Below, in pieces: positions 10,968 to 12,197 of a stretch of DNA of 33,886 bases. Position numbers and translations under genes: made by a program. The stretch spans positions 1 to 33,886 of the forward strand of contig JBDRCO010000060.1 in the NCBI GenBank assembly GCA_043821645.1, written 5' to 3'. How positions within the stretch are numbered: position 1 is the stretch's first letter; each line of letters begins with the position of its first letter. Origin of the DNA: Pseudomonadota bacterium. Its GTDB lineage: Bacteria; Myxococcota; JACRCW01; JAFGSX01. The notes under the pieces were generated by a model that saw only the letters and a program-made list of their open reading frames with translations, was not told the DNA's origin and made no database searches.

Positions 10968-12197
10968 TCACGTTGCGGTGGCGGCCGCGCGCCGCCGCTC
11001 GCCCTGGACCACAGCATCGGCGAGCGTCAGCATCAGCTCCATGCCCACCATGGCCGTGCCATCGCCCATCTCCCCGGGCGCGGTGACCTCGACCAGGTCG
11101 GCCCCGACCACCACGCGCTGTTCCCCCACCTCTCGCAGCAGCTGCTTGACCTCGTGCGGCCACAGACCTCCAGGGACGGGAGTGCCGGTTGCCGGAGCAC
11201 AACTCGGGTCCACCACGTCGATGTCGATGCTCACGTAGTATACGAGGTTCTCGGGGAGGTGGTCGAGTACGGCGGCCGGACCCTCCCGGCGTAGCAGGTC
11301 CATGCCAACCTGCTGCACGCGTTCGGGCATGCCCTGGGCACCGAGGTTGGTGATGCCGCGGAGTCCGACCTGCAGGATGCGCGCGACGTCGGGAAGATGC
11401 TCGTGCACCCAGGTCATCACGCTGCCATGATGCAGGACATCGCGAGGGTGGGGCTCGTCGAGATCGGTGTGGGCATCGAGGTGCAGCAGCCCGATGCGCT
11501 TGCCCTCGAAGCCGCGCAGCACCGGATAGCTGATGGAGTGGTCGCCTCCCAGGACCAGGGGGATGGCGCCCGCCTGCACGATACGCCGAACCTGGCGCGT
11601 CACCCGCGCGTGAACCTCCGCTGCCTCCTCGCCAGGTTGAGCAAACACGTCGCCCGCATCGGCCAGGAGCACCCGCTCGAGCAGGGCGCGGCCCGCTCCG
11701 AAGTCGTAGAACCCCATGGGCAGCAGATCCACGGCGTCGAGCTGAAGCTGGCACGACGAGACGGCCTCACGCAGCACAGCCGGACCGAAGCGAGCTCCGG
11801 GGCGGCCTGAGGTTCCGCCATCCCAGGGCACTCCCAGAAACACGAAGGGCGCGGCGATGGCGTCCTCGACGAAGGGCGCCCCCAGCGCGGTGACCAGTGG
11901 TCGCACGCGCTCCGGGTAGAACTCGCGACCCTGCGCATCACGCTCGACCAGGACCCCGTGCTCGACGCAATCCTGCAAGAACTTCGTCGTATCGTGGCGC
12001 GCGAAGGGAAAGCGCTCGAGCACCTGCACCGGATCCGCGCCATCGATGAAGTGTTGAAGCAGCTGAACCTGGTAGCGCGTGGCATCGATGCTACGTCGCC
12101 AGTGCGGCAAGCGGAGCGTCACGCCCCCACCTGCACGGGGCAGGATCTCGAGGCCAGCATTGCGCACCAGGATGCGTCCCGGCGATGCATCGGACAT
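10968..12197 (-). CDS. Ureohydrolase (agmatinase/arginase family) with N-terminal RRE/PqqD-like extension
   Basis: GVPWD..S.RPGARFGP, GGDHS, DAHTD, HHGS, SIDIDVVDP, TGTPVPGG and DLVEV are present, so the Mn-ligand motifs look intact. Start at ATG 12197 after GGGGAGG. It carries about 90 extra N-terminal residues. Confidence 0.9.
   Translation of the reverse strand: MSDASPGRILVRNAGLEILPRAGGGVTLRLPHWRRSIDATRYQVQLLQHFIDGADPVQVLERFPFARHDTTKFLQDCVEHGVLVERDAQGREFYPERVRPLVTALGAPFVEDAIAAPFVFLGVPWDGGTSGRPGARFGPAVLREAVSSCQLQLDAVDLLPMGFYDFGAGRALLERVLLADAGDVFAQPGEEAAEVHARVTRQVRRIVQAGAIPLVLGGDHSISYPVLRGFEGKRIGLLHLDAHTDLDEPHPRDVLHHGSVMTWVHEHLPDVARILQVGLRGITNLGAQGMPERVQQVGMDLLRREGPAAVLDHLPENLVYYVSIDIDVVDPSCAPATGTPVPGGLWPHEVKQLLREVGEQRVVVGADLVEVTAPGEMGDGTAMVGMELMLTLADAVVQGERRRAAATAT

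Follow-up and report, generated by a model that had tools for sequence, protein, structure and literature searches.

The gene designated here as R lies in a 33,886-nucleotide stretch of DNA (the window, i.e. the whole of contig C60 of a 7.07-Mb genome, which holds a single copy of R) and encodes a ureohydrolase with a fused N-terminal domain. We consider it probable, at roughly 0.7, that R is a post-translational arginase that turns the N-terminal arginines of A, the product of a neighbouring gene, into ornithine, a stand-in for lysine. A preliminary description of the window had proposed that the substrate of R is a guanidino group of a peptide or protein, which may be encoded in the window or elsewhere in the genome. 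This proposal gains support from the N-terminus of A, where the choice between arginine and lysine tracks the presence of R, and which makes A the candidate substrate.

Table 1. Features of the R-B-A cassette, in positions of the window
Feature	Position	Strand	Description and basis
Gene R	10968..12197	-	409 aa (P0001); RRE-like domain and PF00491 ureohydrolase fused; start set at ATG 12197, stop at 10968; GC3 0.81
GGAGG ribosome-binding site	12203..12207	-	5 nt ahead of the ATG of R; sequence
RRE/PqqD-like winged-helix domain	11940..12176	-	R residues 8-86; structure prediction
Linker	11847..11939	-	R residues 87-117, P95 and P108 conserved; alignment, AlphaFold2
Ureohydrolase domain	11025..11846	-	R residues 118-391; Pfam PF00491
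Gene B	10249..10959	-	236 aa; starts 8 nt past the stop of R
Gene A	9665..10096	-	143 aa, Gly/Ala-rich, cationic, amphipathic; likely substrate
A residues 1-25	10022..10096	-	Amphipathic helix with R5, R9, R16, R20, R24 and zero Lys; predicted Arg-to-Orn sites
Intrinsic-terminator-like hairpin	9611..9639	-	13 pairs, T tail, directly after A

Domain structure of R

AlphaFold2 modelled the whole of R with a mean pLDDT of 93.1 from a family alignment of 66 rows, and the isolated N-terminal domain with a pLDDT of 93.8 from 14 rows. A winged helix of the RRE/PqqD type is confidently predicted for residues 8-86, with strands 9-12, 17-20, 26-30 and 35-39, helices 41-50, 56-62 and 67-79, and a closing strand 83-86. 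The model thereby has the three-stranded sheet and three helices, within some 80-90 residues, by which RRE/PqqD-like domains are recognised, and the domain is found where such domains are expected, namely fused to a modifying enzyme near a putative precursor gene (the candidate substrate A). The preliminary description had read three strands followed by three helices from segments that are all present in the translation of R; the helices stand, whereas the model has one extra strand at the N-terminus and distributes the segment LVRNAGLEILP over two strands. The C-terminal motif given there, FL..L.E.G(L/V)L, has to be replaced by FLxxCxxxGxL, which is what the family alignment contains.

A fold comparison against 48,161 chains (VIA-align) returned TigE as the top match of the domain (Z 11.2, rmsd 2.7, 86 aligned), and matches to MccB (Z 9.9), MibB (Z 9.7), the RRE of PbtF (Z 9.6, rmsd 2.1, 80 aligned), TbiB1 (Z 8.2) and PqqD (Z 6.9); Foldseek matched mostly TigE, TbiB1, TruD, ThcOx, MadB, MibB, MccB and PbtF, none of them at E <= 0.001. 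With TigE, MccB, MibB/NisB, PbtF, TbiB1 and TruD/LynD (Z 6.8-11.2) R shares a winged helix of three strands and three helices at the N-terminus of a modifying enzyme, and it differs from them in that its domain is at most about 19% identical to the RiPP-enzyme matches, has no profile match and is fused to a ureohydrolase. The fold also occurs in proteins outside the RiPP pathways, namely BmdC (Z 9.0), 2xdv (Z 8.1), NGO1945 (Z 8.1), NovN and YcfD, and because of these the fold alone is no demonstration of peptide binding. A precursor bound by an RRE domain adds a strand in the cleft between alpha3 and beta3; we infer that the domain of R binds a peptide and that the reaction on A is that of an arginase.

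In the case of the sequence, none of the Pfam and NCBIfam profiles recognises residues 1-115, a PDB sequence search with the domain profile gave no match, and a homologue search with residues 1-130 alone returned only the query, the family being recovered by the full-length search. The domain is no chance extension, since at least 60 of its 79 columns are filled in 65 of the 66 aligned homologues; mean identity across the family is 33% in this domain as compared to 48% in the catalytic domain. The fusion of an RRE/PqqD-like domain to an agmatinase-type domain, as described earlier, is thus borne out by the fold matches, the PF00491 assignment and the conservation, and the statement that metabolic agmatinases lack such a domain is consistent with the PDB, as the best stretches of the best 60 sequence matches start at residue 99 or later.

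The catalytic domain and its family

Pfam assigned PF00491 to residues 118-391 with 218.9 bits. The family alignment was made from the best 67 of the 120 proteins listed by the full-length search, minus one fragment (P0058), so that 66 rows with 37-53% identity to R were left. Ureohydrolases are characterized by the motifs GGDHS, DAHxD and SxDxDxxDP (available text of PMC10028609), and the translation of R reads GGDH220S, D241AH243TD245, H257 and SID325ID327VVDP. The residues H220, D241, H243, D245, D325, D327 and H257, which include all six metal ligands, are invariant in 66/66 members, and with these conventional motifs intact throughout R is very likely active, judging from the sequence.

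With SpeB, GpuA (3nip), GbuA (3nio), 7esr and proclavaminate amidinohydrolase R has the catalytic fold, the six metal ligands and about 25-31% identity in common; these agmatinase-type enzymes differ in having no counterpart of its N-terminal domain. A second difference resides in the HG[NS]V signature at residues 257-260, present in 56 of the 66 members: R has HHG[NS]V, and H-G-[NS]-V is found in most N-extended ureohydrolases, as opposed to HGT[PF/VM/FM] in most of the plain relatives sampled. Both NCBIfam agmatinase profiles score R under their cut-offs (TIGR01230, 136.1 vs 174.3; NF002564, 167.2 vs 302), and by these curated cut-offs R is no SpeB equivalog. In a FastTree phylogeny of 41 catalytic domains a branch with support 99 separates the R family from the 10 plain ureohydrolases and from 17 N-extended ones that are more distant.

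Matches to the R family at E <= 1e-60 were present in 12 of the 301 genomes of the window's phylum, to which a contig-cut copy in G130 adds (one unpublished genome, G195, was counted only in the 301-genome tallies). Scans with generic agmatinase patterns yielded family members in 2 of 80 loci for genome contigs and 4 of 80 for metagenomes, and the two loci from the genome collection are labelled as Myxococcota. The largest family, searched in 121 genomes, gave 7e-76 as its best match to the R profile, whereas true members score 1e-95 or better; the five matches there comprise four plain ureohydrolases and a distant N-extended one.

Gene context

R is followed by B and A in what is an operon-like cassette, conserved in Myxococcota. 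We collected 19 R-family loci (the window, 13 loci from the phylum, G130 and four metagenome contigs), two of which end at or inside R. In the remaining 17, B comes right after R in 13, is 5.4 kb away in one and is missing in three (G115, G077 and G087's second copy). Of the 15 loci that are not cut before A, 11 hold it together with R. The second copies of R in G087 and G111 stand away from B-A, and G115 and G077 carry R with neither A nor B found, A having been searched down to E 0.5. Within the window the gap between B and A measures 152 nt, and about one hairpin like that after A is expected by chance in the region.

B and A are far commoner than R (110 and 83 of the 301 Myxococcota-level genomes, respectively), and B usually accompanies A whether R is there or not. 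Conserved in B is an N-terminal domain of about 120 aa, outside any Pfam family, which is followed by an acidic tail and a C-terminal SHOCT. The SHOCT (B residues 207-233, window 10252..10341, reverse strand) and the extra acidic tail are absent from 9 aligned homologues. A has a conserved C-terminal motif, P-x-G-x-x-N...A-x-x-H/Q-A. Pfam and NCBIfam hold no family for A or for the core of B, and an ESM Atlas search gave no usable match for either; weak matches to HrpA (E 0.076) and to tape-measure proteins were rejected as compositional. Relatives of B occur in Myxococcus xanthus, e.g. MXAN_7390, on which the literature searched contained no paper, and the cluster members of the Lys-type A proteins (see below) are hypothetical proteins of Myxococcus and Corallococcus. 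The B-A pair itself was not described in the literature searched, which included few subscription papers and excluded supplements.

According to Pfam the cassette in the window has no other modifying enzyme, and the whole window no radical SAM gene; in one of the 13 fetched loci (L095) such a gene is present a few kb off. Among the R cassette loci there is no recurrent protease or transporter gene. Next to the cassette a JmjC gene is found in G087 and G111, both of which also have a P450 there, and a JmjC gene 46% identical to it comes after R in G115. These genes (PF08007; L098:1344-2105, L099:11123-11887 and L106 just after 10569) would make hydroxylation of Arg or Orn possible. A prediction of the complex of R (as partner), B, A and two Mn gave 0.00, 0.34 and 0.00 in three runs against a mark of 0.32, and carries no weight either way. 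One RNA data set compared with the window gave no signal, a result with no bearing on expression.

Several further features were seen around the cassettes. In family f6 (L096, L100, L104, L105 and L106), R with or without B is often located beside rsfS and dap/lysine-biosynthesis-like genes, which is probably local synteny. In a subset of the Lys-type loci, B-A is followed by a gene of about 126 aa (L172:4675-5055, L175:7527-7913, L284:2915-3292, L288:6651-7034) that is outside any Pfam family and present in 46 of the 301 genomes, none of them R-bearing. Its product looks GNAT-like, a likeness for which the profile libraries gave no confirming match; if it is an acyltransferase, it would account for the need of amine side chains. 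G099 has several A-B pairs, two of which (L175:6757-13418) occur in reversed order just upstream of an SctV/FlhA-like export-gate gene, assigned by reading the sequence and with no library match; the genome of the window has two such genes, on C70 and C86. A link to type III secretion was rejected, because strong matches to this gene in 190 of the 301 genomes make the co-occurrence uninformative. Elsewhere in the window, a 108-aa ORF (13559..13885, reverse strand; no Pfam match) combines a lipoprotein-like Cys with xYAAPFD-like repeats in tandem, after which comes a YGIVPD motif, and two DUF362 genes and a DUF6599 gene (14023..16837 and 22889..23992) stand amid genes for large secreted Cys-rich, LTD and PKD-repeat proteins with Asp/Ala-rich linkers.

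An arginine-lysine switch in A

In 68 A proteins from the fetched loci, a subset of all A matches, Arg and Lys were tallied over the first 25 helix residues, beginning past the Gly/Ser-rich extension in those forms that have one. Arg exceeds Lys in all 11 tips from loci that contain R (62 Arg, 7 Lys), and in 1 of the 53 for which no R was found (10 Arg, 157 Lys). Four proteins come from genomes that carry R at another place; one of them has more Arg than Lys, and in its genome (G062) R is still beside B. Near residue 20 the Arg zone breaks off abruptly: the 10 full-length R-linked A proteins together have 58 Arg and 3 Lys in residues 1-20, and 3 Arg and 56 Lys in residues 21-70. The A of the window has six Arg in all, five of them within residues 1-24, and its first Lys is K31. 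Its residues 2-19 are strongly amphipathic, with a moment of 0.73 that was attained in 0 of 500 shuffles.

The dichotomy is also seen in the A family at large. A profile of Arg-type proteins yielded 108 representatives, taken as sequences with no genomic context attached, of which 89 were used. Of these, 75 have three or more basic residues in positions 1-25; the tips of 53 of the 75 consist of one kind, Arg or Lys, to at least 85%, whereas 8.9 such tips are expected (at most 19 in 2000 draws). Residues 26-75 are Lys-dominated in Arg-type and Lys-type representatives alike. The median hydrophobic moment is 0.85 for Arg-type and 0.49 for Lys-type tips on the Eisenberg scale, which weights Arg more.

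As a control, B does not show such a switch, its Arg share being 0.46 with R and 0.40 without R. GC bias was rejected as the cause, given that A of the Arg type is found at 47% GC and of the Lys type at 65-73%. We also rejected a twin-arginine signal: the A of the window lacks an RR pair, and so do the Lys forms.

In how far the contrasts are independent was evaluated on a tree of 53 rows, after 14 near-identical rows had been thinned and one without B dropped, and with the trait columns omitted. Each trait (presence of R, tip type of A) requires 6-7 changes. Two independent contrasts lie on starred branches and go in the predicted direction in nearly all pairings (sign test, p 0.5); once unsupported branches count, 7 of 7 do so. 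The best-supported contrast is found in family f18, where G083, one copy in G130 (G130a) and a metagenome contig are R-linked with Arg, and G132, G152, G073 and the other copy in G130 (G130b) are unlinked with Lys; G130 thus holds an R-linked Arg-type A and an unlinked Lys-type A in a single genome. The 53 Lys-type proteins are mostly from related Myxococcaceae and are therefore not independent. There are exceptions, to which G115 and G077 with R but no A found also belong: G052 (96% complete) has a mixed A (5 Arg, 6 Lys) and no R was found in it, and G029 has a very divergent Arg-type A and no close R, only a distant RRE-ureohydrolase elsewhere in the genome.

The small number of independent contrasts leaves room for the reading that R is a small-molecule ureohydrolase, acting on agmatine, a guanidino acid or guanidine, with a structural or vestigial winged helix, and that the Arg-rich A is a lineage trait of those clades in which R happens to occur. 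The solved structures closest to R would suit such an enzyme, i.e. guanidine hydrolase 7esr, GpuA, GbuA and agmatinase, and so would the occurrence of R in G115 and G077, where A and B were not found. We nevertheless regard it as unlikely: R stays under the agmatinase cut-offs, a further ureohydrolase, separate and more distant, is encoded on C65 of its genome, the Arg zone is limited to some 20 residues and flips within one family and one genome, and relatives with a related domain sit in clusters with precursor-like and ThiF genes.

Distant relatives beside precursor-like genes

The N-terminal domain of distant ureohydrolases matches the R domain profile with a probability of 83.8 (E 7.8e-6). 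These N-extended ureohydrolases are found in a RiPP-like gene order beside precursor-like ORFs of 30-42 aa that contain Arg. In L203, L204 and L206 an RRE-ureohydrolase gene is located directly behind ThiF, and a conserved ORF of 30-35 aa with an Arg-rich tail stands ahead of ThiF; these ORFs have a Lys-rich, leader-like part, and the ThiF there carries an N-terminal extension. The outline of a classical RiPP gene cluster, with a precursor-like ORF and ThiF, is seen in these loci; the A of the window combines a candidate core at the N-terminus with a C-terminal motif. The three clusters (L203:2357-4846, L204:448-2968, L206:851-3338) are compact, RiPP-like and located on low-GC metagenome contigs. 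In L217 a C39-peptidase-like ORF adjoins the related enzyme.

In L306 (G029) a distant RRE-ureohydrolase stands beside a precursor-like ORF of 39 aa; the core of the ORF has one Arg along with Ser and two Cys, and a contig-cut gene whose start is RRE-like is nearby (L306:3-2427). In L311 (G325) two precursor-like ORFs with a PRM motif stand ahead of an N-extended ureohydrolase, the extension of which was not detected by the R domain profile. These ORFs (L311:1420-3370) have a double-Gly-like motif, the PRM being in the core, and the ureohydrolase gene faces one that, by reading the sequence, is cupin-like.

Comparison with known peptide arginases

The enteropeptin arginase KgrD, a PF00491 enzyme, makes peptidyl Orn (available text of PMC12703449). 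R belongs to the same Pfam family, and KgrD, in the available passages of PMC12703449 and PMC10028609, carries out a Mn-dependent conversion of Arg to Orn on a ribosomal peptide. The systems differ in that KgrD needs a thiomorpholine, made by a radical SAM enzyme, beside the Arg, whereas the R cassette has no radical SAM gene, and in that the candidate substrate of R is a 143-aa amphipathic protein with several Arg.

With the pfam12640 (UPF0489) enzymes OspR, KspR, FlmR, PbsE and BipC, as far as their papers were available, R shares the proposed reaction, the promiscuous conversion of several Arg in a precursor and, as PbsE does with PbsQ, the company of a JmjC/cupin partner. These enzymes have EEH(N/H)EAF as well as LDIDLDYFSC motifs, as opposed to GGDHS and SxDxDxxDP in R. 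R is therefore no OspR-type enzyme at the level of its sequence, GGDHS and SIDIDVVDP being present and Pfam giving PF00491 only. OspR has been proposed to bind the leader in a dimer cleft, and the part of its structure paper that was available does not use the term 'RRE'. A difference from classical RRE systems is that no classical N-terminal leader is visible in A. An RRE-fused PF00491 arginase did not appear in the literature searched, within the scope given above, and the supplements of RRE-mining studies could list such a fusion.

The logic by which A is connected to R has precedents. Loss of arginase genes where the precursor lacks Arg was used as an argument for PbsE (available text of PMC12257519), and in the selidamides the native Lys of NpuA and the Arg plus arginase of KspA/PhaA are alternative routes to the same amine acceptor (available text of PMC13647313), an alternative mirrored by Lys-type A on the one hand and Arg-type A plus R on the other.

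KgrD and PbsE require prior modification of their substrates (PMC12703449 and PMC12257519, in the parts available). This would fit a reading in which R is a peptide or protein arginase on B, on a pre-modified A or on a peptide encoded elsewhere, and the Arg-rich tip of A is a docking tag for the acidic enzyme or for B, as would the JmjC gene adjoining R in three genomes and the R paralogues that occur without A. This is quite unlikely, considering that the Arg/Lys balance of B scarcely shifts with R, that the cassette of the window has no further modifying enzyme, and that a docking tag would leave little to modify, because all but one of the Arg in A fall in residues 1-24. The likely role of B is that of a chaperone or partner of A rather than a substrate.

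Proposed mechanism

For R as an arginase on A, we envisage that the winged helix docks A, or the A-B pair, and that the N-terminal helix of the docked A is fed into the active site, where the guanidino groups in the first 20-25 or so residues would be hydrolysed to ornithine and urea, arginases having a binuclear-metal mechanism (available text of PMC10028609). Lineages without R encode Lys at the tip of A, and lineages with R encode Arg that would be converted to Orn. A appears to need primary-amine side chains on amphipathic helices, because in residues 21-70 or so both forms have Lys and avoid Arg even at a GC content of about 70%. Ornithine would provide an amine that is resistant to trypsin or an acceptor for further tailoring; resistance of ornithine to trypsin (PMC10028609) and its hydroxylation or acylation (PMC12257519, PMC13647313) are described in the available texts. 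A itself is long and has its candidate core at the N-terminus, in which it is unlike a classical leader-core precursor; our guess, from its amphipathic and basic sequence, is that it is a membrane-active or secreted cationic protein.

The same chemistry might serve another purpose, with the Arg form of A being the active, membrane-lytic one and R partly disarming it in the producer (self-protection or regulation) instead of maturing it, for which the larger hydrophobic moment of Arg-type tips could speak; it is very unlikely, since many genomes without R retain Lys-type A, and these proteins avoid Arg along their whole length, an indication that amine side chains are selected for in the working form.

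Implications

To our knowledge few post-translational arginases are known, nearly all of which belong to pfam12640. The reading of R as an arginase predicts losses of 42.02 Da at R5, R9, R16, R20 and R24 of A. If it is true, the RRE-fused PF00491 arginase represents a third architecture for such enzymes, which is moreover modular; recognition domains that can be separated are sought after in peptide engineering, as a means to introduce ornithine that withstands trypsin. Many such proteins now annotated as 'agmatinase' would then have been mis-assigned to polyamine metabolism. At a higher level, we tentatively propose, at somewhat less than even odds, a family of RRE-guided protein arginases that derive from agmatinases and write Orn into the tip of a widespread amphipathic protein of myxobacteria, within a wider RRE-PF00491 group that would mature many orphan RiPPs across phyla. 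Ornithine would in that case be installed on a folded protein instead of a short cleaved peptide. In the case of the organisms considered here, the analysis of R exposed B-A as an unannotated gene pair, for which encoded Lys, or encoded Arg plus R, would be two routes to the same amine-bearing helix.
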